From positions 1,338,758-1,402,757 of the forward strand of contig OZ242211.1 of assembly GCA_965206345.1 (NCBI GenBank): a DNA stretch of 64,000 bases, written 5' to 3'. Source of the DNA: Arenicellales bacterium. Lineage in GTDB: Bacteria > Pseudomonadota > Gammaproteobacteria > Arenicellales > JAJDZL01. The notes beneath the pieces were generated by a model. That model had not been told where the DNA came from, searched no databases, and saw only the letters and a list, made by a program, of their open reading frames with translations. Made by a program: the position numbers and the translations under genes. This document shows positions 1,864 to 46,434 of this stretch, piece after piece; position 1 is the stretch's first letter, and every line of letters starts with the position of its first letter.

Positions 1864-3021
1864 TCAAACAGACAAGCGCTCGTAGATGATCAGCAAAATA
1901 CCCTGAGCGGCTTCCTGACGCTTCTCAGGTTCCAGCTCAGAATTTGTGCCCACAACTGAAACTTCGGTCATTTCACCCCGCCTCTTGACTAGCACTTCGT
2001 ACTCGTACTGGTCTGGCACCACAACGTCCGCAGGCCTCCAAAACCGCCACCTGAATCTTTTCTTCTTTTTGTCTTTTGTACTTTCAGCAAAGCTGACGTA
2101 GTAAACGCCTTCGCTTCGATTAATGTCCTCAATACCTGCACCGGCACCTTGTAATGTCCGACCTACTTTTACCCAGACAGTCTCAAATCTCTCTCCTAAC
2201 AAGATGCTCTGTTGACCATCGGCTCCCTGAATTAGCCGTTTGTCAACAGAAGCCGACCCAGAATCGCCATAAGCTTGCTCCTCGGCCTCAAAGTGCGCCA
2301 GCAGATAAAATCGCAAACGCTGGAAAAACTCCTGACCTGCTGTTGGATTGACCTCTATATCCAAATCAGAAAGGCCGCTGATCTCTGTTTGGTTAGATCC
2401 AACGGAATGGACCTGAACTTTATCTACACTTCCGGAAAATTCTCTAAGAAGTAAACGGTCCAGAAACTTCCTGCTTTGCTTGACACCGGTATTAGCGACC
2501 AAAATGATTCGGTCAGCATTATTTATTTCAAGGACAAAAACATTCATATCAGCCAATACAGATGGCAATATGTTCCAGACTACGTCTGCATTTTCATGGA
2601 CCAATAATCGAAGGGTCTCGGCCTCCCTGTCTTCGATCACCAAGACCTTAAAGATACCTTCACCACTAAGTCTGGCGGTTTGAAACTCTAGTTCAGACAA
2701 TCCAACGCCTTCAATCTGATCCTTGTAATTCTTGTATTCTTCAAACTCAAGCCAAAGCTGATAGGCCCTTAACTGTTCCGGACCCAGATCTGGTGGTGCC
2801 GAAGGGTCAGATTCAATTTCACCAGGTACAACAAATTGTTCCGGTTCCGGCAACGGCGACAGACCAGGGGGAACTTCCAAAGGGTCTGAAAGCCTTGCAC
2901 CCGGTAGCAGAGAAACCTCCCTACCGCCAAACTCCGCACAGCCGACAATCAGCAAGGCACTGGTGAATATCGATATAAATATTTGATATCGTTTAGTTTT
3001 CAGTTGAGATGTATCAGTCAT
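1864..3021 (-). CDS. BamC (NlpB)-like outer-membrane lipoprotein
   Basis: Lipobox LLIVGC. Two helix-grip-like segments resemble E. coli BamC: VVWNILPSVLADMNVFV versus LWPQVVSVLQAKNYTI, and FETVWVKVGRTLQGAGAGIEDINRSEGVYYVSF versus [33 protein letters not shown]. The comparison was made from memory, not by alignment. Confidence 0.45.
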   Translation of the reverse strand: MTDTSQLKTKRYQIFISIFTSALLIVGCAEFGGREVSLLPGARLSDPLEVPPGLSPLPEPEQFVVPGEIESDPSAPPDLGPEQLRAYQLWLEFEEYKNYKDQIEGVGLSELEFQTARLSGEGIFKVLVIEDREAETLRLLVHENADVVWNILPSVLADMNVFVLEINNADRIILVANTGVKQSRKFLDRLLLREFSGSVDKVQVHSVGSNQTEISGLSDLDIEVNPTAGQEFFQRLRFYLLAHFEAEEQAYGDSGSASVDKRLIQGADGQQSILLGERFETVWVKVGRTLQGAGAGIEDINRSEGVYYVSFAESTKDKKKKRFRWRFWRPADVVVPDQYEYEVLVKRRGEMTEVSVVGTNSELEPEKRQEAAQGILLIIYERLSV

Positions 3022-5440: not shown

Positions 5441-7336
5441 CTAGGTCACCGGCTCGGATTTTTGCATGGCCTCTCTTTTCAGGTGTACGGCCAGAGCCGA
5501 AACCGCAGCTGGCGTAATACCAGGTATTCTGGATGCAAGACCTAAATTCTGCGGACGATGCCGGTCCAACTTCTGCCGCACCTCATTCGACAGCCCATGA
5601 ACCCTGAAATAGTCAATGGCTGAGGGTAGATCGACACTTTCCAGCTTCATTGTTTTACGAAGCGCCGTTTTTTGGCGCTCAATGTAGCCTTCATAACGCG
5701 CTTCTATTTCAAGCTGTTCCTGTACTGAACGGTCAGTAACCGGATTACCGGCACCTGGAAGCTGCATTATTGCATCGTAGTTCACTTCGGGATCTCTGAG
5801 TAGGGCATACAGGGTTGCTTCACTAGTCAACGCACGACCCATGATTTTTTCGCTTACCGCCTGTGTTTCAGCCGTTGGCGTCACTTTAACAGCCTCAAGG
5901 CGGGAACGTTCACTCTCAAGCAAATTACGCTTGGCGCTGAATATATCCCAGCGTCGGTTATCAACCAGCCCAAGTTCACGCCCTATTTCGGTCAAACGAA
6001 GGTCTGCATTGTCTTCACGCAACAGCAGTCGATTCTCTGCCCGCGAGGTAAACATACGATAGGGTTCATCGGCACCTTTCGTCACCAGATCGTCGATAAG
6101 CACTCCAATATAGGCCTGATCTCGTCTAGGCCACCATGTCTCCAGATTCTGAGCCTGTCGGGAGGCATTAAGTCCCGCAATCAAACCCTGGCACGCAGCT
6201 TCTTCATAGCCAGTTGTACCGTTGATCTGGCCTGCGAAAAAAAGTCCGCCAAGAACTTTCGTTTCGAGACTGGGATGCAGGTCCCGAGGGTCCAAAAAGT
6301 CGTACTCAATTGCATAACCCGGACGGGTGATCACTGCACTTTCAAAGCCTTCGATGGATTTGACAAAGTCACACTGTGCTTCGAATGGCAGGCTGGTTGA
6401 AATTCCGTTTGGATAAATTTCATATGAATCAAGGCCTTCGGGCTCTACAAAAATTTGATGAGAGGAGCGATCCGCAAATCGAACCACCTTGTCCTCGACT
6501 GACGGACAGTAGCGCGGTCCTATGGAGTCTATAACACCACCGTACATCGCCGATTCATGTAAATGTTTGCGAATGATGTCGTGCGTCTTTTCGTTGGTGC
6601 GTGCGATATAGCAGGATATCTGACGCGGATGCTCATCAACCGAGCCGATAAACGAAAATACCAGCGTTGGCTGATCGCCAGGCTGCTCAATCAGCCTTGA
6701 ATAATCAATGGTTCGACCATCAATGCGGGGAGGCGTACCGGTTTTTAGACGTTCCACGTGGAACATCATGTCTCGCAGCCTAGTAGCCAGCCGATTCGAC
6801 GGCGCATCGCCGGCACGGCCACCACTTCGCTGCTGAAGGCCGACATGCAAAACACCGCCTAGAAAAGTGCCTGTCGCGAGTACCACACTTCGAGCGTTGA
6901 TTCGAACACCAAATCGGGTAACCACGCCCGTCACACGATCACCATCGACCACCAGATCATCCACTTCCTGCTGAAAAAAAGTCAGATTATCCTGTTCTTC
7001 CAACATCTTTCGAACAGCTGATCGGTAAAGCGATCGGTCTGTCTGGGCTCTCGTGGCACGTACAGCCGGACCTTTTCGAATATTTAACCGACGAAACTGA
7101 ATCCCGCTACGATCAGTCGCATGCGCCATAAGACCGCCCAATGCATCGATTTCACGAACGATGTGCCCCTTGCCGATTCCGCCAATGGCTGGATTGCAGG
7201 ACATTTGTCCAATGGTCTCAATGTTTTGGGTCAATAGCAGTGTACGACTGCCTGTCCGGGCTGCGGCCATTGCGGCTTCAGCACCAGCATGACCGCCGCC
7301 CACAACAACGACGTCGTAGTTCATCATTGACGGCAT
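5441..7336 (-). CDS. mnmG: tRNA uridine 5-carboxymethylaminomethyl modification enzyme MnmG (GidA)
   Basis: FAD motif [15 protein letters not shown]. About 630 aa and family-typical throughout. The ATG at 7336 is preceded by AGGAG 6 nt upstream, so the ORF-track start at 7390 is probably an over-extension. Confidence 0.96.
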
Positions 7337-7525
7337 GACGCTACTCCTGCCTCGGATAAGGGCGCAACACACCCCAGACGCGCAGTACAAGCGCCTTGAA
7401 TATTGCTGAACGTGTATTTAGTCATGTAGACGCGGTCTGTTAAGTGATGCACAGATGCTTGAATTTAGGACGTTAAGTGCCTATTCTGCAGGTCTTGCGG
7501 TCGAATTGGCAATTCGGACTGTGCA

Positions 7526-7534
7526 TTATCCACC
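7526..7534 (+). promoter_or_regulatory. single DnaA-box-like 9-mer TTATCCACC (8/9 to TTATCCACA) upstream of mnmG
   Basis: Read directly from the sequence. It is an isolated box and the 340-bp intergenic region contains only one GATC. Confidence 0.3.
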
Positions 7535-7731
7535 AAATTCACTTCTCTGAATGCTTCAATTTCGCTTTGGATCACCCAATAGAGTCACGCATACGCTCTT
7601 TACCTGCCACAAAATTTTCTCAGGCAAAAGTCCTGTAATTGCGAAATAAAAACTTCATTAGTCTTTATTATCAATAACTTATGAATATATCAGTATTGAT
7701 TTGGCCACACTGAAGATGATGCTTCAGTCTG

Positions 7732-10632
7732 TCATTGATTGGAATAGTAGTCGTATTTCGACTGAATGTGTTGAGTAAAGGCCCAGGCCTCAGAAAAAGT
7801 CAACCTGTCTTCATCAGGAAAAATTATTCTGGTGTAAAGGCCCTCAGACCGTTCGCTTTTAAGGCGGGTCAATACTCCTTCAAGCTCCTCGCGTGACACT
7901 TGAACTGCAGCAGCCTCACCTGGCAACCTATAGCGAAATACGTTTTCACCTTCAAGTGACTTGTTAAATATCACATCGACAACATAGCGGTTAGCTGGAC
8001 TTCGTGCAGGTCGCAGTAGAATTTGACGCTCCTCCTGAAGTTCGACAATCTCACTTTGAAGCTGTTCAACTTCACCACTTCTCGATGTCAGTGCGGTTTG
8101 CAGATTGGCCAATTCGGTTAGCCGCTGCTGATAGGCCTCACGCAATTCGGCAATTTCGTGGTCGCTTTTCACACCCGTCTCAAATAACTCTTCTTTCTCT
8201 GTCTGCAGGCTTTCAATCTTTTCATCCCGAGACTTTAAATCGGCACTCAATTGCGCCATAACAGTTTGCAGAGTTTCAAACTGCTGTTGCCGATCTGCCT
8301 GCAGCCTGCGACTGTAGTCAAGCTCCCGCAGCAACTCTTCATTTTCGATTGTTATCTGCTGTATCGTCCGCTCAAGTTCCACCAGTTGCTGTTGCTGTTG
8401 GGCTATTCGGTCCTGGTTCTGTGTTCTTTCTGTTAGTAATTGATCTATTTGACTTTTTGACTCATCGCTGGAGGTGTTTAGTGCACTGACTTCGTCACTT
8501 AGTGTGGCAACTTTCGCATTAAGAGAATTGATCTTTTCGTTACGCTCCTGTAGATCCAATCTCAAAGAACTGATCATTTCAACTGCGGACACCATCTGTT
8601 CCTGTAACCGCGCCAGACTACGCTCGTTTTCAATGAATTCCGACTCCATGCGATCAAGCTCAGCTAAACGTTCTGTGTAAAGTGCCTGTAGCGCAACAAG
8701 TTCCTGTTTCTGGCTTTCAATGGTCTGCGTACTTTGTACCTCAGATTCAGTCAGACGAGCGATGTCGGCCTTCTGGCTTTCACTCAAGGCTGCACTGGCC
8801 AGTCGAACCTTCTGTAATTCCTCCAACGCTGTTTTAAGCTCCGACTGAGTTCGAACCAGGTCCCGGTCACTCTCTATAAACTCAGCTTCAACTCGATTCA
8901 ACTCTACAAGCCTTTCATCGTATAGCGCCTGTAGCGATGTAAGTTCCTGCTTCTGACGTTCGATAGTCAGCGCGCTTTGCGTCTCAGACTCAGTCAGTCT
9001 CGCTATGTCAGCCTGCTGAGTCTCGCTCAACGCCGCACTGGTAATTTTCACCTGCTGCAGTTGACTCAACACATCATCTAACTGCGATTTAGTTCGAGCC
9101 AGTTCGCGCTCTCGGTCGAGAAAACTCTCCTCTATTTGATTGAGTTCCGCCAAGCGTTCAGCGTACAGTGCCTGTAGCGATGCTAGCTCCTGCTGCTGAC
9201 GTTCGATAACTAGCGCACTTTGTGTCTCAGACTCAGTCAGTCTCGCTATGTCAGCCTGTTGAGTCTCACTTAGTGCCGCACTTGATAACCTCACTTGCTG
9301 TAAATCTCTCAACGCTCGAACCAATTCGGACTTGGTTCGTACCAGTTCGCGCTCCTGTTCAAGGAATTGCGCTTCTGCTTGAGTGAGTTCTGTAAGCTGT
9401 TCGGCCTGTATAACCTGCAAAGACGCAAGTTCCTGCTGCTGGGATTCAATGATGCGTCCACTCTCCACCTGGCTCACCTCCAAGGCTTCAATTTCGTCCA
9501 GCAATCCGACTTGTGCTTCAGTTAACTGAGCCACCTGGTCTGATTTAGCGGTCAGTTGACGCTCAATATCGGAAATTTCAGCAGCGCGCTGTGTCAATGT
9601 TTCGCGCAACTGTGCCTGTGACTCCTGTTGGCGCTCAATAGTCAACCCCTGTTCCAATCTAACGGCTTCCAATTGCTCCACAACACCCTGCAGCTGCGCA
9701 CTGGCAAGCTTCAAACTCTGGATTTCATCCTCTCGACTGACCAGACCGGTGCGAAGCTCCTCCACCGCCGCAAGACTCTCGCTATATGCCTGTTCCAGTT
9801 CTTCTAACTCAGTCAATCGCTCTGCCAACTCGGCACTCTGCTGCTGAGTAGCCTCAGATAAAGCCGCAATCTGTTCGTCCTTCAAGCCTGATTCAGCGAT
9901 CAAATCTTGAATCTTGACTTCGCTTTCTGCTCTGACCTTTTCAAGTACTGCAATCTGATTGCGCTGTTCTGCTTCAAGTGCCTGTAGATCGGCCAGAGTA
10001 AGACGCAACTCTTCCACTTCGCTACTTCGCTGACTCAAATGCTCTTCCAGAGCCGCCAACTGGTTCTGCTTATCAAGAAGTCCGGCTTGTAGCGCTTCCA
10101 GTTCCACCGTTCGTGATTGAATCAACGAATTCAACTCAGTTATGGTAAGGTTCATCGAACTGACTCGTTCTGTCAGCTGATCGCGCTGGCCTCGAATCTC
10201 CTGAAGGCTTTTGGTTAAGCTACTGACTTCAGCGTCAAGCTGCTGTTGGACCTGATAGAGTTCAGCAGTTTCAATTTCAAGTTCAGATATTCGGGCGCCA
10301 CGTTCTATTGACAATTTCTCAAGTTCTGCCTTTTGAAACTCTGTCAGGTTAAGCTGCTCTTTGGTTTGTTCAACAATTTCAGCAAGATAAGCGGCTCTCT
10401 CACGCAAAGACTCAGTTTCCATCATCGCCTGGCTACGCGCCTCAGAAGCGAGTTCCATATCTTGACCTAACTGGATATTACGCAGCATGAAAATTACCGC
10501 CGCCATGAGAAATATCATCACAATAACCATCATGATGTCAGTGAATGATGGCCAGATACTGTCGTCAGAATGACTGCTTTCAGTGGCGCGGTGAACGCGC
10601 AGGTCAACGAAGCCGCCAGAGTTCCCCGTCAT
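7732..10632 (-). CDS. ExbD/TolR/MotB-like single-pass membrane protein with a giant (~820 aa) coiled-coil stalk and a small C-terminal alpha/beta domain
   Basis: N-terminal TM WPSFTDIMMVIVMIFLMAAV closely resembles the E. coli ExbD TM TPFIDVMLVLLIIFMVAAP, including the essential Asp (D32 here, codon 10537-10539). Residues ~55-870 are heptad-like and Q/E/L-rich, with 81-aa tandem repeats. The last ~95 aa (RYVVDVIFNK...LYTRIIFPDEDRLTFSEAWAFTQHIQ) are reminiscent of the ExbD/TolR periplasmic domain. No OmpA-like peptidoglycan-binding motif is present. Confidence 0.8.
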   Translation of the reverse strand: MTGNSGGFVDLRVHRATESSHSDDSIWPSFTDIMMVIVMIFLMAAVIFMLRNIQLGQDMELASEARSQAMMETESLRERAAYLAEIVEQTKEQLNLTEFQKAELEKLSIERGARISELEIETAELYQVQQQLDAEVSSLTKSLQEIRGQRDQLTERVSSMNLTITELNSLIQSRTVELEALQAGLLDKQNQLAALEEHLSQRSSEVEELRLTLADLQALEAEQRNQIAVLEKVRAESEVKIQDLIAESGLKDEQIAALSEATQQQSAELAERLTELEELEQAYSESLAAVEELRTGLVSREDEIQSLKLASAQLQGVVEQLEAVRLEQGLTIERQQESQAQLRETLTQRAAEISDIERQLTAKSDQVAQLTEAQVGLLDEIEALEVSQVESGRIIESQQQELASLQVIQAEQLTELTQAEAQFLEQERELVRTKSELVRALRDLQQVRLSSAALSETQQADIARLTESETQSALVIERQQQELASLQALYAERLAELNQIEESFLDRERELARTKSQLDDVLSQLQQVKITSAALSETQQADIARLTESETQSALTIERQKQELTSLQALYDERLVELNRVEAEFIESDRDLVRTQSELKTALEELQKVRLASAALSESQKADIARLTESEVQSTQTIESQKQELVALQALYTERLAELDRMESEFIENERSLARLQEQMVSAVEMISSLRLDLQERNEKINSLNAKVATLSDEVSALNTSSDESKSQIDQLLTERTQNQDRIAQQQQQLVELERTIQQITIENEELLRELDYSRRLQADRQQQFETLQTVMAQLSADLKSRDEKIESLQTEKEELFETGVKSDHEIAELREAYQQRLTELANLQTALTSRSGEVEQLQSEIVELQEERQILLRPARSPANRYVVDVIFNKSLEGENVFRYRLPGEAAAVQVSREELEGVLTRLKSERSEGLYTRIIFPDEDRLTFSEAWAFTQHIQSKYDYYSNQ
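8560..9480. repeat. ~3.8 tandem copies of a 243-bp (81-aa) coding repeat inside the coiled-coil gene
   Basis: The string tcaga(c/t)tcagtcag recurs at 8741, 8984 and 9227, an exact 243-nt spacing. The protein unit is LSETQQADIARLTESETQSALVIERQQQELASLQALYAERLAELNQIEESFLDRERELARTKSQLDDVLSQLQQVKITSAA. Confidence 0.9.
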
Positions 10633-10651
10633 AACGGTTGGACCTTAGCTC

Positions 10652-11578
10652 CTAGTCAGAATTGGAATCGTCCCGCAAACGGAAACCAGCTCGCAGAATG
10701 CCCCGAATGTCACTGAGCAAATGCATGTTCTGTTCGTTGAGCTTTTCAAAGTTGTCCAGCATCTCCTTTTGCGCAACACCGAGGGACTGAATTTGATTGA
10801 TGAAGGAATTGAACTTGTCGATCGTCTCAACCGTGCTGGCCAGCATTTCACTCAATGCCTGCTCTGGAGAACGGGTTGCAACCTGATAGCGTGGAATCAT
10901 CTGGGTTGCGGTCTCATGCTCTACCCAGCCCAGGATGTAAGACTGGGTGTCGAGTAATTTAAGGTAAAAATACCCGAACAGAAAATACGACACAATCGCG
11001 GTCATCGTAGTTGAGAGTGCAGTCGACATACCATGAATAACAATATCAATACCGCTTAAACTCTCTGTTGCCGAGATTGCCGTCGATGCGCCAAGCAGTG
11101 CCACTGTCAGCGATACAATCGTACCAAAGACACCCGCCAAAATTAGAATGTTATTGATAAATTTGACAAAACTTGTCTTGCTCGTCTCTCTGGCGAGCAA
11201 CGTTGAAGCCAGCGCATTGTGATTGATTTCGGTTCGTGCTCTGAAAAATCCAGCAATGGTCCAATAACGCTGTCCAATGATGGAATCTTTTGGCAGTACA
11301 TCTCCTATATCTTCTTCTCTTCCGGACGCGACGGCGTTTGAAAAAGCATTTATTGCGATTTCTTCATTCCGGTAGTGAAGAAAAAGATGAATCATCCGCC
11401 CCATCCCAACCAAAAACAATGCCAGAATTGCGCCATTGATCACCCATCCAACTCTGGTGAGTTGATTTTCAATATACAAATCCGACAGATAGTCGAATTG
11501 CCATATAACGGCGACAATAAGAAGAGCCAGAACAACGGCTATCTGGATCAAAATTCGCTCTGATTGGTTTTTTCGCAT
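10652..11578 (-). CDS. MotA/TolQ/ExbB-family proton-channel-like membrane protein
   Basis: Four predicted TM helices. Family-like motifs are ILILAGVFGTIVSL (compare LLGLLGTVxG) and MSTALSTTMTAIVSYFLF (compare ALxTTxxGLxxAIP). There is a ~100-aa C-terminal soluble extension. The gene lies 19 nt upstream of the ExbD-like gene. Confidence 0.7.
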   Translation of the reverse strand: MRKNQSERILIQIAVVLALLIVAVIWQFDYLSDLYIENQLTRVGWVINGAILALFLVGMGRMIHLFLHYRNEEIAINAFSNAVASGREEDIGDVLPKDSIIGQRYWTIAGFFRARTEINHNALASTLLARETSKTSFVKFINNILILAGVFGTIVSLTVALLGASTAISATESLSGIDIVIHGMSTALSTTMTAIVSYFLFGYFYLKLLDTQSYILGWVEHETATQMIPRYQVATRSPEQALSEMLASTVETIDKFNSFINQIQSLGVAQKEMLDNFEKLNEQNMHLLSDIRGILRAGFRLRDDSNSD

Positions 11579-11650: not shown

Positions 11651-13033
11651 CTATTTCCCGATACAAAAGCTGGCAAATATTTCACCTAGCAGTTCATCGG
11701 CTGATCGAGTTCCAACAATTTTGCCAAGCTCATCCATTGCATCTCGCAAATCCTGCGCCGCCAGTTCTCCAGATTTATTTTCACTGAGCGCAGTATGTGC
11801 ATTGACAACATATCTAAGCGCATTCTCAATCGCCTCAAGGTGCCGCCTTCGCGCAAGAAACATACCTTCATCACTTGCGGTAATACCAGCAAACTTCCGA
11901 ATGTGACTGCGAATCGCATCAATACCGAGTGCATTCTTAGCGGATATTGTGACCTCATTCGCCTGACATCCCGTTGGAGATGGAACAAAAGAATCATCAA
12001 GATCTATTTTATTCCACACAATCAACAATTTAGACTCTTCTATTTTGCCGAGATTACCCCGATCTGTGTCGCTGATGTCTTGCGTAATGTCAATCAGATA
12101 CAGTACGAGGTCTGCATCGCTGATGCTTTGCCAAGCTCGTGATATACCTTCCTGTTCGACGGGATTGTCACTAACTCGAAGACCAGCAGTATCCGTTATG
12201 CGAACCGCTAGGCCTTCAATGTCAACGACAAGATCCACTGTATCCCGGGTGGTTCCTGCATAGGGTGTCACGATTGAACGCTCAAGACCAGCGAGCTGGT
12301 TTAGCAGGCTGGATTTCCCGGCATTGGGTAACCCCGCGATGACGACTTCTATCCCCTCGCGCATCACCTTTCCCCGCTCTGCAGCATTCAGCAGATCAGC
12401 GAGCTCACTTCTAATCCCAACCACTGACGTGATCAGTTGCTGATCATCTAGGAAATCAATCTCTTCGTCCGGAAAATCGATGGCAGATTCAACATAGATT
12501 CGCAGATTCTGCAGCTGATCCATTATTCGAGATACTTTGTAGGAAAAGTCTCCCTTTAGCGAACGCAGTGCACATCGTGCTGCAGCTTCTGTCGAACTGT
12601 TGATCAAGTCGACAACCGCCTCAGCCTGGGCGAGGTCAATTTTCGAATTCAAAAATGCGCGGCGGGTAAATTCCCCAGGTTCAGCAGTGCGAGCGCCTAA
12701 ATCGAGGACCCTTGCCAACAGCATACCAAGCACCACCGGGCCGCCATGACACTGAAATTCAACAACGTCTTCGCCAGTATAGGAGTTAGGTGCTGGAAAA
12801 AAGAGCAACACTCCCCGATCAATTTCGCCACCCTCGCCATCGTAAAAGATACGATAGCCAGCGTTTCTCGGTGGCGGAACCGAGCTACTCAGACGGGCTG
12901 CGATTGCTACTGAATTGGGCCCGGAAAGACGGACAATTCCAATGCCACCCACGCCAGCGGGTGTTGATATGGCAGCAATCGTATCGGTATCACCACCATC
13001 TATTCCGCGATCAGTTTGCGGGTGATATACCAC
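11651..13033 (-). CDS. mnmE: tRNA modification GTPase MnmE (TrmE)
   Basis: DTIAAISTP at the N-terminus, G1 motif GLPNAGKSSLLN and the C-terminal CIGK. GTG start overlapping the end of yidC. Confidence 0.95.
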   Translation of the reverse strand: MVYHPQTDRGIDGGDTDTIAAISTPAGVGGIGIVRLSGPNSVAIAARLSSSVPPPRNAGYRIFYDGEGGEIDRGVLLFFPAPNSYTGEDVVEFQCHGGPVVLGMLLARVLDLGARTAEPGEFTRRAFLNSKIDLAQAEAVVDLINSSTEAAARCALRSLKGDFSYKVSRIMDQLQNLRIYVESAIDFPDEEIDFLDDQQLITSVVGIRSELADLLNAAERGKVMREGIEVVIAGLPNAGKSSLLNQLAGLERSIVTPYAGTTRDTVDLVVDIEGLAVRITDTAGLRVSDNPVEQEGISRAWQSISDADLVLYLIDITQDISDTDRGNLGKIEESKLLIVWNKIDLDDSFVPSPTGCQANEVTISAKNALGIDAIRSHIRKFAGITASDEGMFLARRRHLEAIENALRYVVNAHTALSENKSGELAAQDLRDAMDELGKIVGTRSADELLGEIFASFCIGK

Positions 13034-17384: not shown

Positions 17385-17492
17385 GATTTTTGCTCTCTAT
17401 CTCATTGATAATAGGTGAGTATTGAGGTTTTTGACACAATTTGCAAGCCTAACAAAAAAAGAAAACATTTATAAACAACTTTATTGGTTACC

Positions 17493-18689
17493 ATGCAATT
17501 CCTGATTGAAAAAGATGCGATTATCGATCCTTTGACCCGAGTTTCGTCCGTCATTGATTCCGGTCCAACAATTCCAATCCTGTCGCAGGTTTTGATTGAA
17601 ACAAATAGTGATGGTATTCGCCTGTGGGGTTCCAACATTGATATGGAAGCCAGCGAGCGAATTGTCGATGTCGATGTCGCTGCTGAAGGCAGGTTTGTCT
17701 GCTCTGCACAGTTGTTGCTGGAGTATTGTCGCCGTCAGCGAAATGGCAGTCGTCTGAGCTTTTTTCGTAGCAACAGAGATTTGGTGGTTGAGAATATTGA
17801 TACGACTGCAATGGGCACTCCGCCCGAAGCCAATGGGGATGCATCGGAGGATTTTAAGAATGCATTTACCGAAACATTGCTGGATCCGGACGATTTTCCA
17901 TACCTTAGTGTTGGTGAAGATGAGTGGGCACTACAGTTTGATATTGATCGGTTTGCGTTGCGTAGCATTCTCAAGCGGACGGAGCATGCAATGGGCCAAA
18001 ACGAACCGCGTATGTATTTGAATTCCACTTTATTGGAGGTTTCGAATACCTCAGTACGCGCAGTCACCACTGACAGCCATCGCTTGGCAATCAGTGAAAC
18101 GAACCTGGATACAGAAATTGGCGATGCATTTTTTCGACATCGTGCCGTGCTACCGCGGAAAACTGCGCTTGAACTCAGCAAGGTTCTGGGAACCTTGACT
18201 TCAAGAGTTACGGTAAAGATCAAGAACACACACATTCAGGTATCGACACCTTACTACTCTTTTACTTCAAAACTGCTGGAAGGTGCATTTCCAGATTGGC
18301 GTGCGGCTGTACCCGGGGATCTGGACCTGGCGTTTCGTGCAAACCGAGAGGAACTTGCCAATGGCTTGAGGACGGTCGGTATTCTCGGTATGTCGCAGCG
18401 GGATGCAAACAAATCGCGAATTGCGGCCAAAGTAGAAGTGAGCGGCGGTAGACTGGATATTCGAGCCGACGTTGTTCAGAAGAAAGTTGAACACACAATG
18501 AATGTGGAAGAGAATGTGGAAAAACACGTGTTCCAGATCAATTACCGATACCTGTTAGACGCGCTCGACGCAATGCCTGATTGCGAGAACGCCGATGTGT
18601 ATTTGCGGGATACCCAATCCGCCTGCCATGTAAAGTTTCCTGAAGATGAATCAACCAGTTTTCTGGTTATGCTGCTGAAAGACAGTTAG
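17493..18689 (+). CDS. dnaN: DNA polymerase III beta sliding clamp (divergent)
   Basis: Conserved position. Recognisable blocks are PTIPILSQVLIE, MYLNSTLLE, TTDSHRLA, SKLLEGAFPDW and FLVMLL at the C-terminus. About 30 aa longer than E. coli DnaN, with an acidic insert (ENIDTTAMGTPPEANGDASEDF...). The ORF track starts at TTG 17484. I prefer ATG 17493. Confidence 0.85.
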   Translation: MQFLIEKDAIIDPLTRVSSVIDSGPTIPILSQVLIETNSDGIRLWGSNIDMEASERIVDVDVAAEGRFVCSAQLLLEYCRRQRNGSRLSFFRSNRDLVVENIDTTAMGTPPEANGDASEDFKNAFTETLLDPDDFPYLSVGEDEWALQFDIDRFALRSILKRTEHAMGQNEPRMYLNSTLLEVSNTSVRAVTTDSHRLAISETNLDTEIGDAFFRHRAVLPRKTALELSKVLGTLTSRVTVKIKNTHIQVSTPYYSFTSKLLEGAFPDWRAAVPGDLDLAFRANREELANGLRTVGILGMSQRDANKSRIAAKVEVSGGRLDIRADVVQKKVEHTMNVEENVEKHVFQINYRYLLDALDAMPDCENADVYLRDTQSACHVKFPEDESTSFLVMLLKDS

Positions 18690-18787
18690 TGCTCGCAACA
18701 GCAGCAAAATAATTCAGTAACTTTCGTTTGTGCTAGATGCGTTCGCCAGCCAATCCAACGCATTCAACACAGCATTCATTGGATAAG

Positions 18788-21238
18788 ATGACAGAAAACA
18801 AAAACAACGGAAGTTCTTACGGAGCCGAAAACATAAAGGTTTTACGCGGCTTGGAACCGGTCCGTAAACGTCCTGGTATGTACATTGGTGACACTGACGA
18901 CGGAACCGGTTTGCATCACATGGTGACCGAAGTTGTTGACAACTCGATTGATGAGGTTTTGCAGGGATTTTGCGATCGGATTGCTGTCACTATACATGCA
19001 GACGGAGCGGTTTCCGTTGAAGATAACGGTCGAGGCATTCCGACCGATATCGTCAAAGAAGGCGGGCCAAACGGTGAAGATATGCCCGGCGCAACAGTTG
19101 TGATGACGGTCCTGCACGCTGGTGGAAAATTTGACGAAGAGTCGTACAGTGCTGCAGGAGGCTTGCATGGTGTTGGCGTATCTGTGGTGAATGCACTTTC
19201 GGAAAAGCTGTACATGACTATCCACCGGGAAGGCGAAGTTCACTATCAGGAATTCGCCGATGGGGAACCCGTCGAACCGATTCGGGTAACAGGTCAATCC
19301 GACAAAACCGGAACCACGATCCTTTTCAAACCGTCGGACAAGTACTTCAGCGATACTGAATTTCATTATGAGATCATTCATCAGCGGTTACGGGAGCTGG
19401 CTTATCTGAATTCTGGCATTCATATTGAACTCTACGATGAGCGTGACGGGCGCCGAGAGGTCATGAAAAACGATGGTGGCATCGTACAGTATGTAGCCGA
19501 TCTGAATCATTCGCGCGACCCGATTAACCAAGACGTGATTTCGTTGTCTGGTGAACGGGACGGCGTGGTTGTTAACGCAGCTTTGCAGTGGTGCAATAAC
19601 TATTACCAGGATAATTCCCGAAGCTACACGAATAATATCTATCAACGCGATGGTGGCACCCATACAACAGGTTTTCGCAAGGGTTTAACAACAACAATCA
19701 CCGCGTATATGGACGATTTGGGTATCGGCAAGAAAATTTCAGTGAATGGAGACGATATTCGCGAAGGCTTGACATCGATTCTGTCGGTTAGGGTGAGCGA
19801 TCCCAAATTCTCCTCTCAGACAAAGGACAAACTGGTATCCTCATCTGTCGAAAGCGCAGTGCGACAAGTGGTTTCCCAGGGCCTGAATGAGTTTCTGGTA
19901 GAAAACCCCAGAATCGCTCGTATGATTTGTGATAAAGCCGTTCACGCAGCCGCGGTTCGCGAGCGCGCACAACAGGCACGAAAAGCCGCTCGAAAGAATG
20001 GCTTTGAGTCAACCACCCTGCCAGGGAAACTGGCAGATTGTCAGGAGCAGGACCCGGCACTCAGTGAATTATTCCTGGTTGAGGGCGAATCCGCTGGTGG
20101 TTCGGCCAAGCAGGCTCGAGATCGAAAATACCAAGCGATTCTACCCCTTAAAGGCAAAATTCTTAATGTGCAGAAAGCATCGATTGACAAGATTGTGGCG
20201 TCTGAAGAAATTCAAACACTGATTGCTGCACTAGGAACTGGTGTTGACAATGATTTTGAAATCGAAAATTTGCGCTATCACCGCATCATCATCATGACTG
20301 ATGCAGATATCGACGGCTCTCACATTCGCACCTTGCTACTGACGTTTTTCTTCAACAAAATGCGTCGTCTAATCGAAGACGGGCACCTATATATCGCGCA
20401 GCCACCGCTGTACAAAGCGAAGTATAAAAAGTCGGAAAAGTATCTGAGCGATGATGGTGAACTGGATGACTATGTGCTGGAGAATGCACTGTTGGATGCA
20501 AAAGTCGAACTGATGAATGGTTCAGACAGTGCCGCGATCGTGCTTGAAAAGGAAGCGCTTGAAAAACTCTGCCAGACTCGAATTGATGCTCGACTGGCAA
20601 CCGAAAAACTATCAAATCGCAACATTGACCCCCGGGTGCTTTCTGTCCTAAGTAAGCTGCAGCCACTTGATCCGGATAAATTCGGTGATCAGGCTTACCT
20701 TGAATCATTCGCGGAAAAGATCTCAGAAGCATTGGAAGACGAACGCGGTGATTATTCTGTCGAGGTCATTCCTGCAGAAGGGGAAGAGCCTGAAGCTGGC
20801 TACCATATTAAGTTTGTTAGAGAACACATGGGAAGCCGTAGAGAGTCTTTGATTGACAGATTGATTGTGAGCTCATCCAGCTATAAGCTGATGACTGCCT
20901 TGGCTAATGAAATGCACAAGCACGATGTGTCGGCAGTTATTGCTCAGCGTGGTACAAAATCCGCCAAACATGTTGATCTGACCGAGGCAGTCGACTGGCT
21001 GATGCAGGATGCCCGCAAGGGAATGACCATTCAGCGCTACAAGGGCCTCGGTGAAATGAACGCAGATCAGTTGCGCGATACCACCATGGATATGAGTGAG
21101 CGCTTGTTGCGAAAGGTCAAGATCGAAGACATAGATGGCACCGACGAGACTTTTGAAATTTTAATGGGTGACAAGGTGCCGCCTCGGCGTGAGTTCATTG
21201 AAACCAAGGCCCTCTCGGCAAAAAATATCGATATCTAG
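18788..21238 (+). CDS. gyrB: DNA gyrase subunit B
   Basis: RKRPGMYIGD, LVEGESAGGSA, PLKGKILNV and IMTDADIDGSHI. MTENKNNGSSYGAENIKVL at ATG 18788 matches the family N-terminus, so the ORF-track start at 18737 is probably an over-extension. Confidence 0.96.
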   Translation: MTENKNNGSSYGAENIKVLRGLEPVRKRPGMYIGDTDDGTGLHHMVTEVVDNSIDEVLQGFCDRIAVTIHADGAVSVEDNGRGIPTDIVKEGGPNGEDMPGATVVMTVLHAGGKFDEESYSAAGGLHGVGVSVVNALSEKLYMTIHREGEVHYQEFADGEPVEPIRVTGQSDKTGTTILFKPSDKYFSDTEFHYEIIHQRLRELAYLNSGIHIELYDERDGRREVMKNDGGIVQYVADLNHSRDPINQDVISLSGERDGVVVNAALQWCNNYYQDNSRSYTNNIYQRDGGTHTTGFRKGLTTTITAYMDDLGIGKKISVNGDDIREGLTSILSVRVSDPKFSSQTKDKLVSSSVESAVRQVVSQGLNEFLVENPRIARMICDKAVHAAAVRERAQQARKAARKNGFESTTLPGKLADCQEQDPALSELFLVEGESAGGSAKQARDRKYQAILPLKGKILNVQKASIDKIVASEEIQTLIAALGTGVDNDFEIENLRYHRIIIMTDADIDGSHIRTLLLTFFFNKMRRLIEDGHLYIAQPPLYKAKYKKSEKYLSDDGELDDYVLENALLDAKVELMNGSDSAAIVLEKEALEKLCQTRIDARLATEKLSNRNIDPRVLSVLSKLQPLDPDKFGDQAYLESFAEKISEALEDERGDYSVEVIPAEGEEPEAGYHIKFVREHMGSRRESLIDRLIVSSSSYKLMTALANEMHKHDVSAVIAQRGTKSAKHVDLTEAVDWLMQDARKGMTIQRYKGLGEMNADQLRDTTMDMSERLLRKVKIEDIDGTDETFEILMGDKVPPRREFIETKALSAKNIDI

Positions 21239-42411: not shown

Positions 42412-45400
42412 ATGAATAACAACTACGACAGCAAGGAGAACTATGCAGGTCGCCATTCAACGAGCTCACCTGCTAGTGATTGGCAGCGTGCAGTTCCATT
42501 CGACGTTCAAAATGACACGCCGCTCAAAGGATTAATTTATTTCACAGTCTTTACAGCGCTCTCGTTATCAATTCTGGCTTTTGCGCTGGTCCCTCAACTG
42601 AGGGTCGACGATAAAAACTTCAATTCTATAACTGGAATTGCCCCGCCAGTTTCACAGGCTATCACCAAAGAAGCGACACCTGCATCTGAAGCGGCGCAAA
42701 ATATCGAGTTAGAGACTGACGCACAGGATGGTGGCAACCCAGTTAATATTTTGGAGCAGACGGTCCAAACTGATAGTGAGCTAGACCAGCCATTGGGACT
42801 CACCTCTTCAGCGATGGAACTGACTACAGCTGAAACTAGCGGATCAGCGAAAGAGACAGAAAGTACCGGCGAACAAGTCAGTGTTCAGGAGCCAGTAGAT
42901 GTGTCTGCTACCGGACCCGCACAACTTCCAGAACCACCTGACCCCGCGTTGGAGTTGGCAACGACCGAATCAAGTGAAGAACTTGCACCAGAGACAGACC
43001 CTCAACTCTCTTTTGAATTGAGAAATCATACCGAAGAGGTGATCGAAGTCACTGAAACGCCTGTTCAACCATCCGAGCCGATGACTCTGCTTACAACTGA
43101 ACTGGCTGCACTTACAGATTTTGATGCAGAACATCAGAATCTTCCCGAGTCAATCAGTGATTTCGAATCGACAGCCTCTGTTGGACAAGCGCCGGTTCAA
43201 CAAGCCGAATTGACCGTAGTAGAGCCGCGGTCACTTGAGACGGAGTTAGCCCAGGTTGACGAATCGGAAACGGATCGTCAAAGTCTTGAAGAGCTGGTCG
43301 TGCCTGTCGAGTCGGTGTTACAGGTTGAAACAGAGCACGGACAACAGGTTGAACAGATGCAGCCCGAGTTGGCCGTTGTTATCGATTCTGAAATTGATGC
43401 TCAACAATCCGGTGGACCAGCAAGTAACCAAAAGTCGCCGGAATTCACTGTAACAGATTCGGACCAAGGTTCCAGGCCGCTGCAATCAGCCACAACTGAA
43501 ATAGCTCAGATTGCTGCAATGAGGGATATCCAGCAAAGCCATGTTGAACCGGTCAACGACACTGAATCTAGTGCTCGCATCGATGAAGAGTCAGTCGAAC
43601 AGCCCAAGCTAGCTGTTCCGGTACTGGAACAGCTTGCAACTGAACTGGTTGCTATTACAGACTTTGATGCAGAAAACCGGAATCTTCCCGAGCCAATCAG
43701 TGATATCGAATCGGCAGCATATGTTGAAGAAGCACCGGTCCAACAATTCGAATTGGCTATGCTTGAACCGGAGTCACTTGAGACGGAGCTGGCGCAAGTT
43801 GCTGAATCAGTCACAGATGGCCAAACTTTTGACGAACTGGCCGTGTCCGCCGAGTCGGAGGTGCAGTTTGTAGCAGAGCACGAGCAGCAGGTCGAACAGA
43901 TTCAGGCCGAAATAGCCGTTGTTTCAGGTGCTGGTAAGGATGCTCAAAATTCCAGTGAACCGGTAAACGAGCGCGAGGAACCGGAATCCATAGAAATGGA
44001 GCAGGACCAAGGTTTCAGTGAACTGCAGCCAGATACGACTCAATTGGCTCGGACTGCTGAAGTTGATGTTGCCCAGCAAAGTCACATTGAGCCGATCAGC
44101 AACACCGAATCCGTTGCCCGCATCGGTGAAGAGTTAGTTGACCAATCACAGCCAGCTGTACCGGTACTGGAACCGCTTACAACTGAACTGGCTGCACTTA
44201 CAGATTTTGATGCAGAAATCCAGAACTTTCCCGAGTCAGTCCGCGATATCGAATTTGCGGATTATGTTGGAGAATGGTTTGTATCAGGACCGGCGCTGCT
44301 TGAGACGGAGCTGGCAAAAGCTGCTGAATCAGTGGCCGATGATCAAAGGCTTGTCGAACCGGTTCTGCCCGCTGAGTTGGTGGTACAGGTTGAAGTAGAG
44401 CACGAACAACAGGCTGAACAGATTCAGCCCGAATTGAACATCGTTTCAGTTCTGGCCAAAGAGGCACAAGATCCTGGTGAATTGGCAAGCAGTCGCGAGG
44501 CACCGGAATTCATTGAAGCAGAATTGGACCAAAGTCTCGGTGAACTGCAGCCAGCCACGACTCAATTGGCTCGGGCCACTGAAGTAGATGTTGCCCAGCA
44601 AAGTCACATTGAGCCGATCAGCAACACTGAACCTTTCGCCCGTATCGGAGAAGGATCAGCTGGCCAGTCCCAACCTGTCGAACCAACGGTGGAACCGGTT
44701 GAGACTGATTTGGCTGAAACTACTGAGTCGGAGACGGGCGACGAGGGCGTTGGTGGACCGATTAGCGATTACGAACAGGCGCTTCAGCTTGATCAACAGC
44801 CTAATCAACAGACACAGCCAGACGTTACCGTGCTCGAACCCGTATCGGGTGAAGAAAAGTTGGTACCAACCGGAGTAGCCGAGCCAGTCATTCTGCTGTC
44901 CACCGACCTTGAGTCTCTAGCGAACGCACCTGTGGTTTTAACTGAGTCGATTGTTCGTCCTGGTGATTCACTGTCGTCCATATTCAATCGTAATAACCTG
45001 TCCTACAAAATTGCCCAAAGGCTGATTAGTGCACCGGGCAGCAAACCAATCTCTGTGCTGTATCCACGCGACCATTTTAAGTTCGTCTGGAGTAACAACA
45101 AACTGCTTGGCATTGAACTTCGTCGTAAAAATAAACTTTCGCTAATGGCAACTTACGATGGAAGACAGTTTTCCGTTATCAATATCAGAGAGGCCCGACG
45201 CGCTGGTACGATTGTGAAGTTGTTGAAGCAGGAAATTGATTCCGTAGAACGTGAAGATCTGATTGACTATGAGACTCAATACGCAAAACTAAAGAGTACA
45301 AATTTGAAGTGGAGCACCATCACTGTAAAAAAAGGTGATGCATTGAGCAAAATTTTCAGACGTACTGGCCTTTCTGCAGTTGAAGCTATTGCTGTTGCAG

Positions 45401-46434
45401 GCTACCCCGGTAATGAGTGGTTGGCCACCGGTTTGAAACCAGGACAGGAGATGAATATTGCAAAGTCTGAGGAGGGGAAATTTGCAATCCTAGAGGTTCC
45501 TGAGAAGGGAACAGCAAAAGTTCGGCTTGTTTTTCCAGTGGAAGACGGATTCTTCGCAGGTTTTAAAATGATCAAGGCTGAAGTTCAGGAACACTATGCC
45601 TGTGCAGAAGTTGAGAGCAGTCTTTATACTGCAGGATATGCGATCAATATTCCTAGAGAAGTAATGGACGAATTTGTATCGTTGTTTGAATCGCGTTTTG
45701 ACTTCAGCCGACAGTTACAACAGGATGATCAATTCTGCGTCATTTATGATCGTGAATACATCAAGGGTAAGCCTTTAAAGGAAATCAAAATTAAAGCGGG
45801 ATCTCTGATTCAGGAAAACGCTGAGTTGCGCGCCTTCCGGCACGTTGATGATGATCACAGGGTTGCCTACTATGACAGCGAGGGTTTGAACATGCAGGGA
45901 CACTTCCTGCGGTCACCAATCAAGTCTGCAAGAGTAGTTTCAAATTACAGTAAAAGACGCTACCACCCGGTGCTGAAAACCAATCGGCCCCATCTTGGTG
46001 TTGACTATGGCGCCAGAACTGGAACTCCAATTCGGTCGACTGCAACCGGACAGGTCATTAAACGTGGATGGTCCGGCGGTTATGGCAAAATGATCGTTGT
46101 TCAACACGGCAGCAAATATCGTACGCTTTATGCCCACATGTCACGCTATGCTGACGGCACCTCGGTTGGTAGCTACGTCAAGCAAGGGCAGGTGATTGGT
46201 TACGTCGGTTCAACCGGCCTGTCTACGGGTCCGCATTTACACTATGAATTTCATGTAAATGGTAGACATCGCGATCCGTTGCAATATGACATGCCAAAAG
46301 GCCAGCCCATTCCAGAACAATACAAAGTCACCTTTCAATCAGTAGTCGACGAATTCAGCAAACGTCTGGTAAGTATTGATTCACCACAGGTTGAGTACCG
46401 TCCCTCAACTGTCCAAACTGCGAGCAGCCAGTAA
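42412..46434 (+). CDS. MepM/YebA-like murein endopeptidase (OapA/LysM-like + M23) with an ~800-aa acidic repeat insertion
   Basis: N-terminal TM (LIYFTVFTALSLSILAFALVP). A highly acidic (E/D/Q-rich) repeat region follows, then VRPGDSLSSIF and ITVKKGDALSKIF LysM/OapA-like segments. The C-terminal M23 core is HLGVDYGARTGTPI...GSTGLSTGPHLHYEF. The tyrS / M23 peptidase / anmK synteny matches Pseudomonas. Confidence 0.85.
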   Translation: MNNNYDSKENYAGRHSTSSPASDWQRAVPFDVQNDTPLKGLIYFTVFTALSLSILAFALVPQLRVDDKNFNSITGIAPPVSQAITKEATPASEAAQNIELETDAQDGGNPVNILEQTVQTDSELDQPLGLTSSAMELTTAETSGSAKETESTGEQVSVQEPVDVSATGPAQLPEPPDPALELATTESSEELAPETDPQLSFELRNHTEEVIEVTETPVQPSEPMTLLTTELAALTDFDAEHQNLPESISDFESTASVGQAPVQQAELTVVEPRSLETELAQVDESETDRQSLEELVVPVESVLQVETEHGQQVEQMQPELAVVIDSEIDAQQSGGPASNQKSPEFTVTDSDQGSRPLQSATTEIAQIAAMRDIQQSHVEPVNDTESSARIDEESVEQPKLAVPVLEQLATELVAITDFDAENRNLPEPISDIESAAYVEEAPVQQFELAMLEPESLETELAQVAESVTDGQTFDELAVSAESEVQFVAEHEQQVEQIQAEIAVVSGAGKDAQNSSEPVNEREEPESIEMEQDQGFSELQPDTTQLARTAEVDVAQQSHIEPISNTESVARIGEELVDQSQPAVPVLEPLTTELAALTDFDAEIQNFPESVRDIEFADYVGEWFVSGPALLETELAKAAESVADDQRLVEPVLPAELVVQVEVEHEQQAEQIQPELNIVSVLAKEAQDPGELASSREAPEFIEAELDQSLGELQPATTQLARATEVDVAQQSHIEPISNTEPFARIGEGSAGQSQPVEPTVEPVETDLAETTESETGDEGVGGPISDYEQALQLDQQPNQQTQPDVTVLEPVSGEEKLVPTGVAEPVILLSTDLESLANAPVVLTESIVRPGDSLSSIFNRNNLSYKIAQRLISAPGSKPISVLYPRDHFKFVWSNNKLLGIELRRKNKLSLMATYDGRQFSVINIREARRAGTIVKLLKQEIDSVEREDLIDYETQYAKLKSTNLKWSTITVKKGDALSKIFRRTGLSAVEAIAVAGYPGNEWLATGLKPGQEMNIAKSEEGKFAILEVPEKGTAKVRLVFPVEDGFFAGFKMIKAEVQEHYACAEVESSLYTAGYAINIPREVMDEFVSLFESRFDFSRQLQQDDQFCVIYDREYIKGKPLKEIKIKAGSLIQENAELRAFRHVDDDHRVAYYDSEGLNMQGHFLRSPIKSARVVSNYSKRRYHPVLKTNRPHLGVDYGARTGTPIRSTATGQVIKRGWSGGYGKMIVVQHGSKYRTLYAHMSRYADGTSVGSYVKQGQVIGYVGSTGLSTGPHLHYEFHVNGRHRDPLQYDMPKGQPIPEQYKVTFQSVVDEFSKRLVSIDSPQVEYRPSTVQTASSQ
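43060..44700. repeat. three tandem ~522-543-bp (174-181 aa) coding repeats in the mepM-like gene
   Basis: ttacaga(t/c)tttgatgcagaa recurs at 43112, 43655 and 44198, a 543-nt spacing. gcccagcaaagtcacattgagccgatcagcaacac recurs at 44071 and 44593, a 522-nt spacing, because the third unit has a 21-nt deletion. Confidence 0.9.

Follow-up and report, generated by a model that had tools for sequence, protein, structure and literature searches.

Few ion-driven motors of the 5:2 type are understood, namely the flagellar stators, the Ton and Tol systems, the motor of gliding and type 9 secretion (T9SS) and Zorya, and each of them revealed a new way of converting ion flow to mechanical work. Here, we present a pair of co-oriented genes from an Arenicellales bacterium, gene A (10652..11578, minus strand, 308 amino acids, aa) and gene B (7732..10632, minus strand, 966 aa), which lie in a stretch of 64,000 nucleotides (nt) of contig OZ242211.1 that we call the window, and which look like a well-supported, widespread and undescribed branch of these motors. 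The pair combines a conserved ion pathway with a novel kind of B subunit, whose rod varies greatly in length and ends in an orphan domain, and no client gene is linked to it. Our preferred reading, on which we consider the case evenly balanced, is that the two genes encode a housekeeping, ion-driven envelope motor of the 5:2 type, in which B would act as an ExbD/TolR-type subunit and at the same time provide a stalk that spans the periplasm or serves as a tether.

This architecture is not described in recent surveys that cover MotAB relatives and periplasmic force transducers (PMC12505986, PMC12204202), no family description or 'ZorAB-like' system was found in the literature searched, and no described family in Pfam, NCBIfam or PADLOC matches the pair. 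The family is unnamed, in line with an earlier annotation of the window made by a model from its letters alone (hereafter, the sequence-only reading), which had not recognised the architecture as a described system. The two co-oriented genes of 308 and 966 aa between mnmE and mnmG that it had reported were recovered from the open reading frames and from the Pfam matches of their flanks.

Conservation of the gene pair

A and B are obligatorily paired and usually translationally coupled. A is followed by B in 84 of the 93 loci, the remainder being cut by a contig end, and the two genes occur together in every complete locus; in 44 of these 84 loci the reading frames overlap by 4 nt. The 80 metagenome loci, in which A is 39-49% identical, have the B motif WP[SA]FTD[IV]M downstream in essentially every complete case. 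No terminator-like site was found between mnmE, A and B in the window, where a short spacer separates the two genes:

10633..10651, minus strand: A-B spacer of 19 nt with a GGAG/AAGG ribosome-binding site before B, from the sequence

The pair is present in many marine Gammaproteobacteria. Clustered at 90%, the A family comprises at least 2779 members, of which nearly all are unnamed or called 'hypothetical', and the exact A sequence of the window has no record in the contig index.

Subunit A

By its modelled fold and its aligned motifs, A is a channel subunit of the ExbB/TolQ/MotA type with an intact polar pathway. The features of A are the following, with transmembrane (TM) helices given in residues:

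A residues ~5-26, 42-66, 141-169 and 174-205: four predicted TM helices, with the N- and C-terminus inside
10964..11158, minus strand: channel-lining helices of A (residues 141-205), from the family alignment and MAFFT
10655..10963, minus strand: residues 206-308 of A, a cytoplasmic TM4 extension and a ~60-residue C-terminal helix

When the AlphaFold2 model of A (predicted local distance difference test, pLDDT, 77) was compared with the PDB by Foldseek, the 34 best matches were all ExbB/TolQ chains, followed by MotA (8ucs) and ZorA (8qyh). The E values of the top matches were modest (0.02-0.16), with probabilities of 0.89-1.0 and TM-scores by target of at most 0.62. Together with the aligned channel motifs, this fold bears out the sequence-only reading, which had called the 308-aa protein MotA/TolQ/ExbB-like. 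Matches to the PADLOC models of ZorA were weak, the best being ZorA1 (E=7e-5).

In the family alignment, G149-x-F151-G152-T153 and G183...A187-L188...T191...A194-I195 are invariant. MAFFT alignment with the E. coli proteins places T153 on ExbB T148 and TolQ T145, and T191 on ExbB T181 and TolQ T178, so that the segment G149-x-F-G-T153 superposes on GLFGT148 of ExbB and G183...T191...A-I on PGIAE176ALLAT181. In the same alignment, the glutamate of ExbB (E176) and TolQ (E173) is replaced by T186, and neither channel helix of A contains a proline, unlike those of ExbB/TolQ. The channel positions are invariant though the family members are only 40-45% identical to the A of the window; in ExbB, Thr148 and Thr181 have been called essential, as has Asp25 of ExbD (PMC12905483).

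The loop charges obey the positive-inside rule for a four-helix topology with the N-terminus inside: the N-terminus has a mean of 3.0 lysine plus arginine residues, and the loop between TM3 and TM4 is acidic, with means of 0.25 lysine plus arginine and 2.0 aspartate plus glutamate. The alignment of ExbB/TolQ to A stops before residues 206-308, and the C-terminal helix, which ends in an invariant L-x-x-G-F-R-L (L295, G298, F299, R300, L301), is without counterpart in these proteins. A has ~100 residues after TM4, and the long coil of this system sits on the B-type subunit and not on A, as the sequence-only reading had stated.

The N-terminus and TM helix of subunit B

B consists of an N-terminal peptide and one TM helix, followed by a coiled coil that leads to a C-terminal domain. 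Its sequence marks it as a B/D-type subunit, and its helix, which is of the ZorB/MotB type, carries a near-invariant Asp:

10483..10632, minus strand: residues 1-50 of B, conserved peptide (GFVDLR...HSDDS) and TM helix, WPSFTDIMMVIVMIFLMAAVIFML
10537..10539, minus strand: codon of Asp32, the presumed ion-binding residue, within WPSFTDIMMV (motif W-x-S-F-x-D-I-M)

Residues 1-50 are 65-100% identical across Arenicellales, and hydropathy gives a single hydrophobic segment in B at residues ~26-50. The 83-residue N-terminus matched the PADLOC models ZorB1 (E=2.4e-8), ZorB2 (5e-7) and ZorB3 (5e-5) and, weakly, the NCBIfam models PRK09040, PRK09039 and ZorB1 as well as Pfam ExbD (E=0.009). A profile of 116 full-length B relatives found ZorB in the PDB (8vvn_B, E=6e-6; 8vvi_A, 5e-4), and among the PDB matches to the B N-terminus the ZorB chains 8vvn_B, 8vvi_A and 8qyd_F came ahead of ExbD; 8VVN and 8VVI are ZorAB complexes of type I and type II, respectively (PMC11890865). 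The motif W-x-S-[FY]-x-D-[IL]-M is common to B and to all three ZorB chains and is looser in ExbD. Asp32 aligns with the motif Asp of the three chains and with the Asp of ExbD (residue 25); the corresponding residue of E. coli ZorB is Asp26 (PMC11946911).

In view of these alignments, the segment is better termed ZorB/MotB-like than ExbD-like. Of the 'textbook ExbD' helix with D32 that had been proposed from sequence, the aspartate stands, while the helix itself is closer to ZorB/MotB-type sequences than to ExbD. Pfam ExbD (PF02472) matched the helix region of B alone (16.5 bits; cut-off, 25.4), with no match to the C-terminal domain, and was weakly matched by 4 of the 116 B family members; a regular-expression scan of the window and all loci found no ExbD/TolR-type helix. 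Searches of B and its 116 relatives for MotB_plug (PF13677) and OmpA-like (PF00691) domains gave no match. All 21 genome loci and every complete metagenome locus encode the TM Asp, as do 114 of the 116 full-length representatives. Of the three findings that the sequence-only reading had named as refuting it (a known family with a defined role, a TM Asp that is not conserved, two genes that do not co-occur), none was made.

The coiled coil of subunit B

The roughly 820 residues of uninterrupted heptad-like sequence noticed in the sequence-only reading correspond to a coil of 818 residues that contains an internal repeat array:

8017..10470, minus strand: residues 55-872 of B (818 residues), continuous heptad coil, strongly acidic
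8590..9561, minus strand: four tandem repeats of 81 aa (243 nt), residues 358-681 of B, found with Tandem Repeats Finder

There is no proline in B at residues 28-875 and neither Gly nor Pro at 393-819. The heptad score is 0.54, compared with 0.40 +/- 0.013 for shuffles (>10 standard deviations), with mostly L/I/V in position a and mostly L in position d. The 81-aa repeats have an offset identity of 80-93%, and each consists of 10 heptads and one hendecad, which shifts the register by +4 (series 2, 6, 3, 0). Many lineages acquired recent tandem duplications independently, with periods of 42, 49, 70, 133, 154, 287 and 81 aa that all equal 7n or 7n+4, and the copies of the 133-aa period are 100% identical. 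Such in-phase duplications point to selection for an unbroken coil, not for a fixed length.

The segment from the helix to the PARS motif of the end domain has 185-962 residues (median 479) and is proline-free in 61 of 61 complete B proteins, and the shortest coils of the family have 185-192 residues. The full-length median among B cluster representatives is 335 aa, at which the coil has ~190 residues or ~28 nm; the 966-aa B of the window is therefore an extreme. Computed at ~0.15 nm per residue, rod length ranges from 27 to 142 nm across the family and is ~120 nm for the B of the window, of which 63 nm are without a helix breaker. The periplasm is 15-40 nm wide (PMC12905483), and the shortest rods fit into it, whereas the ~120 nm rod of the window does not. 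The claim that the coil is too long for the periplasm thus holds for this B but does not extend to the family-typical coil of ~28 nm.

The one-sided duplications and the 427 residues without a helix breaker would be easier to reconcile with a parallel dimer in register than with a hairpin, since duplications of these periods would be tolerated by the former and not by a coil that folds back on itself. A symmetric antiparallel hairpin was considered as well and is unlikely for the same two reasons, the lack of a breaker at 393-819 and the one-sidedness of the tandem duplications. Crescentin-type and other filament coils match the B rod weakly.

The window encodes a second inner-membrane-anchored protein with a hugely expanded, repeat-built linker resembling the B coil in this respect, an M23 peptidase (42412-46434, plus strand, 1340 aa). 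Its N-terminal membrane anchor is followed by ~900 very acidic low-complexity residues built from ~190-aa tandem repeats, and OapA-LysM, Csd3 and M23 domains follow.

Source labels of family members can mislead. Among the records P0125, P0147 and P0169, an A member is named 'uncharacterized MnhB-related membrane protein' and B fragments are named 'chromosome segregation ATPase' or 'predicted nuclease with TOPRIM domain'. Automatic annotation thus leaves A hypothetical and sometimes turns fragments of B into an SMC-type ATPase, which is misleading beside parAB.

The C-terminal domain of subunit B

The coil leads into a small domain of its own:

7735..8016, minus strand: residues 873-966 of B (94 aa), alpha/beta domain (PARS...EAW-x-FT...YDYY), from alignments

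The model of this domain has the order beta-beta-beta-alpha-beta-alpha-beta, with a pLDDT of 83 that rises above 90 over most of the domain. A HMMER search of 1.84 billion representatives returned 388 clusters at E<=1e-3, 362 of them already at 1e-10, so the domain forms a compact family that is always C-terminal and has no tail of distant relatives. Foldseek gave nothing significant; the best TM-score was that of TolR 5by4 (0.46/0.48, probability 0.80), which stood among many RNase H-like partial matches, and no OmpA-like structure was in the list. The sequence-only reading had compared the domain to the ExbD/TolR periplasmic fold. The modelled resemblance to TolR is topological and unproven as a relationship: the order of secondary structure elements is the same and TolR gives the best TM-score, but no match was significant.

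These data bear on a narrower form of the envelope motor, a Ton/Tol-like energiser in which the B end domain would make contact with a receptor or lipoprotein of the outer membrane and the stalk would pass on the proton motive force, in the manner of TonB/TolA. The ExbB/TolQ fold of A, a minimal stalk of ~28 nm that fits the periplasm, the TolR-like topology modelled for the end domain and the presence of two Slp lipoprotein genes after B in one lineage are all compatible with such a system. However, B has neither a TonB/TolA C-terminal domain nor a proline-rich spacer, no receptor gene is linked to the pair across lineages, and a continuum of stalks up to 142 nm is hard to square with point-to-point force transmission, which makes this form of the motor unlikely in our view. 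No TonB, TolA, TolB or Pal genes were found near the pair in the window and the 93 loci, the rest of the genomes not having been searched, and there was no peptidoglycan-binding gene near the pair either; the absence of peptidoglycan-binding domains and of TonB/TolA at the locus had also been noted from sequence, as had that of ZorC and ZorD.

Genomic setting

The pair is flanked by two genes of the same orientation:

11651..13033, minus strand: mnmE, upstream of A and 72 nt before it, co-oriented, from Pfam and synteny
5441..7390, minus strand: mnmG, downstream of B after a 341-nt gap, co-oriented, from Pfam and synteny

Between mnmE and mnmG the pair is a conserved resident in many lineages. 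The order rnpA-yidD-yidC-mnmE-A-B-mnmG-rsmG-parA-parB was found in 19 of 19 Arenicellales species representatives, and in this order of bacteria both ends of B are conserved while its length varies from 610 to 1030 aa. When lineages are defined at 70% A identity, about 14 of the 20 have mnmE and/or mnmG nearby. In 27 of 37 cases, 9-31 nt separate B from a following mnmG, and an unrelated 5.2-Mb genome has the arrangement mnmE-A-B(407 aa)-x-mnmG. Rather than being 'inserted' into the mnmG-mnmE cluster, as the sequence-only reading had it, the pair is an ancient resident of it. A recent insertion or mobile element is ruled out by the order-wide synteny and by composition, the GC content over A and B being 0.44-0.51, the same as in the flanks. 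Neither mnmE nor mnmG lies near the pair in the four lineages whose B is shortest (331-339 aa). In Thiodiazotropha, the pair lies away from these genes, and a B of 333 aa is followed by two Slp lipoprotein genes.

In the window, Pfam matches identify mnmE, yidC and rnpA upstream of the pair, followed by the divergent dnaA, dnaN and gyrB, and mnmG, rsmG, parA, parB and an NlpB/BamC-like lipoprotein gene downstream. Cumulative GC skew reaches its lowest value around 13-15.5 kb, consistent with an origin close to the gap between rnpA and dnaA. This position raises the alternative that the coil is cytoplasmic and organises the chromosome or its origin. B would then have an N-out/C-in orientation, with an SMC-like rod and an end domain that act together with ParAB and oriC. 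Several points are in its favour: about 14 of 20 lineages have the pair between mnmE and mnmG, close to parAB and dnaA; the coil has a weak SMC match (TIGR02168, 63.6 bits); the flank charges of B slightly favour C-in; and some pipelines give B fragments the label 'chromosome segregation ATPase'. Yet the SMC matches are confined to the coil, far below the cut-off of 567, and come without an ATPase head; the TM motif aligns in the same direction as in ZorB and ExbD, whose N-termini are cytoplasmic; and the lineages with the shortest B have the pair away from origin genes. The mnmE-mnmG adjacency may be ancestral in Gammaproteobacteria, and if so, inherited synteny would explain the position of the pair. 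A role in origin organisation is therefore highly improbable. That B is an SMC-like protein was ruled out, as it has neither an ABC-type ATPase head nor a hinge and only the TM helix and the 94-aa domain outside the coil.

A second alternative that the setting helps to judge is a sensor or defence module related to Zorya. The pair would then be a ZorAB in reduced or ancestral form, with a periplasmic coil that senses envelope perturbation and a short C-terminal helix bundle of A that signals it. The best sequence similarities of both subunits are indeed with Zorya models or structures (ZorA1 for A; ZorB1 and the ZorB chains of the PDB for B), and A has an extra helix after TM4, where the ZorA tail begins. 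Against this, neither ZorC, ZorD, ZorE, ZorF or ZorG nor any other effector adjoins the pair in the 93 loci; the ~100 cytoplasmic residues of A contrast with a ZorA tail of ~500 residues and 70 nm (PMC11946911); and B is without the Pal-like peptidoglycan-binding domain that Zorya needs. The pair occupies a core-genome position and not a defence island, and no relatives of it were found in 2.9 million viral contigs and PLSDB plasmids. We regard such a module as very unlikely, and a defence island as such was ruled out by the context and by the absence from viral contigs and plasmids.

The remaining features of the setting concern the intergenic regions and neighbouring genes. The 341-nt gap between B and mnmG (7391-7731) is AT-rich and contains one promoter-like site (7512-7483, minus strand); gaps of 350-400 nt are found in the closest relatives of the window's clade, compared with 9-31 nt in most lineages. 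An Rfam scan of the first 20 kb gave no match, DnaA boxes were not enriched and a repeat scan of intergenic regions revealed nothing remarkable. The common gene order is dnaA-dnaN-recF-gyrB. Here, dnaN (401 aa) is directly followed by gyrB, without recF between them (17484-21238, plus strand), and locus L020 also has the order dnaA-dnaN-gyrB. The atp operon would be expected after the par genes, as in many Gammaproteobacteria. In the window, the NlpB/BamC-like lipoprotein gene (1864-3021, minus strand, 385 aa) comes directly after parB, and a gene of this type was detected beyond the par genes in each of the 19 Arenicellales loci.

Other neighbours of the pair in the family are an agmatinase-like gene, genes of cystathionine enzymes and a MoxR-DUF58-transglutaminase cassette. 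The latter comprises genes on the minus strand for a MoxR-type AAA ATPase, a DUF58-like protein and a transglutaminase-like membrane protein and lies between B and mnmG in L023, L028, L031, L032, L053 and L082; it looks like an independent insertion and not a partner. Two genes for Slp-family outer-membrane lipoproteins on the same strand follow a B of ~335 aa in L021 (10023-11076), L022, L074 and L083. They are the sole hint of an envelope partner and are confined to one lineage of the Thiodiazotropha type.

Proposed mode of action

Sequence comparison suggests that A and B probably form an inner-membrane motor of the MotAB/ExbBD/TolQR/ZorAB kind with the composition A5B2. In the envelope motor that we favour, the two B helices would place Asp32 inside the ring of A, facing T153 and T191, and ion flow at the Asp32 site would make the A ring rotate against the B dimer. 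The N-terminus of B would be cytoplasmic and its coil and end domain would be periplasmic, because the known relatives all have a cytoplasmic B N-terminus. The parallel TM helices would continue as a parallel in-register dimeric coil, and the end domain would dimerise and grip peptidoglycan or an outer-envelope partner. The common short stalk of ~190 residues would span the periplasm, and B would then do the work of ExbD/TolR and, in bridging the periplasm, also that of TolA/TonB. The ~120 nm stalk of the window cannot stand upright and would lie at an angle to the membrane or along it, serving as a long tether or torque arm. The pair would be co-transcribed with origin-proximal core genes and would not serve defence.

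Several results weigh against this proposal. No third gene, client or partner is conserved across the 93 loci. A scored only 17.0 bits (E=0.005) against Pfam MotA_ExbB (PF01618), below the gathering cut-off of 22.9, and a profile of 28 A homologues found no ExbB, MotA or ZorA among PDB sequences, only helical noise, so that the A family must be very divergent; in favour of the proposal, the homologues P0059, P0062 and P0065, with 55-59% identity to A, are assigned PF01618 by precomputed annotation. The end domain of B had no match in Pfam, NCBIfam or PDB sequences, including a profile search of the PDB, and hhalign comparisons of B profiles with E. coli TolR and ExbD were not significant (helix, E=0.014; a short strand-helix stretch, E=0.62). 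No significant relative of the end domain emerged from structure or sequence, and a role in anchoring is thus conjecture. The continuum of coil lengths from 185 to 962 residues counts against a strict periplasm-spanning ruler. The flanks of the B helix have 1.25 lysine plus arginine residues before and 2.25 after it, which is ambiguous and slightly the wrong way for the proposed orientation; ZorB, however, has comparable periplasmic arginines, which pair with an acidic loop of ZorA (PMC11946911), and the TM3-TM4 loop of A is likewise acidic. Finally, Asn replaces the TM Asp in 2 of the 116 representatives, P0289 (WSSFSNVM) and P0290 (WPSFTNIM), which may be inactive or differently coupled variants.

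Some of these observations would also suit a passive structural element, in which a degenerate, channel-like A would hold the coiled coil of B in place as a periplasmic tether or filament and no ion-driven work would be done: A falls below family thresholds, the glutamate of ExbB/TolQ has become T186, two representatives have Asn for Asp, and the coil has weak matches to crescentin-type and other filament proteins. However, the near-invariance of the Asp, of T153 and T191 and of the entire TM3/TM4 motif among sequences with only 40% overall identity indicates selection on the ion pathway, and we consider a passive role quite unlikely.

A bolder version of the envelope motor, which we find somewhat unlikely, is a third layout of 5:2 motors, in which a coil of 27-142 nm on the B dimer passes through the periplasm as a rotating shaft or torque arm for an undescribed envelope function, in mirror image to the ZorA tail. 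If this were true, the extreme lengths of B and of the linker of the M23 peptidase would point to an unusual envelope architecture in Arenicellales. The coils of 185-962 residues also form a natural series in which the transmission of force or rotation along a periplasmic coiled coil might be studied.

Comparison with known motors

Among the motors of the 5:2 type, GldLM/PorLM of gliding and type 9 secretion has a GldM subunit whose long dimeric periplasmic structure reaches outer-membrane components. The periplasmic part of GldM is a chain of globular domains and not a coiled coil; no sequence similarity of GldLM/PorLM to the pair was detected, and no T9SS genes lie near it.

The NCBIfam families PRK09039 and PRK09040, named as a MotB-like 'peptidoglycan-binding protein' and a hypothetical protein, gave weak, repeated matches to the TM helix and the first part of the coil of B. 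The Thiodiazotropha B matched with E=1.6e-7, and scores were 20-31 bits against cut-offs of 194-388. These matches suggest a wider MotB-like group with a coil after the helix. PRK09039 is named for peptidoglycan binding, whereas B has no such domain, and no functional study of either family was found.

With MotAB/PomAB the pair shares a four-helix A, an Asp near the N-terminal end of the B helix (position 32) with a Trp before it, and the presumed 5:2 stoichiometry. It differs in that B is without an OmpA-like domain, neither MotB_plug nor MotA matched at threshold, A is without the large torque-generating cytoplasmic domain, and no flagellar genes occur in the loci examined.

ExbB-ExbD and TolQ-TolR provide the best structural match for A, with channel motifs that align residue by residue, the same gene order of A then B, and, in TolR, the secondary structure order modelled for the B end domain. 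A has an extra N-terminal TM helix, an extra C-terminal helix and a threonine for the conserved glutamate of ExbB/TolQ. The linker of ExbD/TolR has ~20 residues (PMC12905483), compared with 185-962 coil residues in the B family. Neither TonB nor TolA is linked to the pair, and the ExbD model matched B weakly and through the TM helix.

ZorAB (8QYD/8QYH, 8VVN, 8VVI) is the closest system by sequence for both subunits. The two share the W-x-S-[FY]-x-D-[IL]-M motif of the B helix, threonine or serine residues on the two inner A helices and the possession of one very long coiled coil. In Zorya, this coil is the pentameric, cytoplasmic tail of ZorA, whereas here it is on B and would be periplasmic and dimeric; the match to ZorB is confined to its N-terminal region, and its Pal-like domain has no counterpart in B. 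Zorya resides in defence islands with its effectors, while the pair belongs to the core genome, without ZorC/D/E and with mnmE, mnmG and unrelated metabolic genes as neighbours. That a pair whose nearest relatives by sequence are the Zorya motors sits in a housekeeping operon may bear on how Zorya is related to chromosomal motors.

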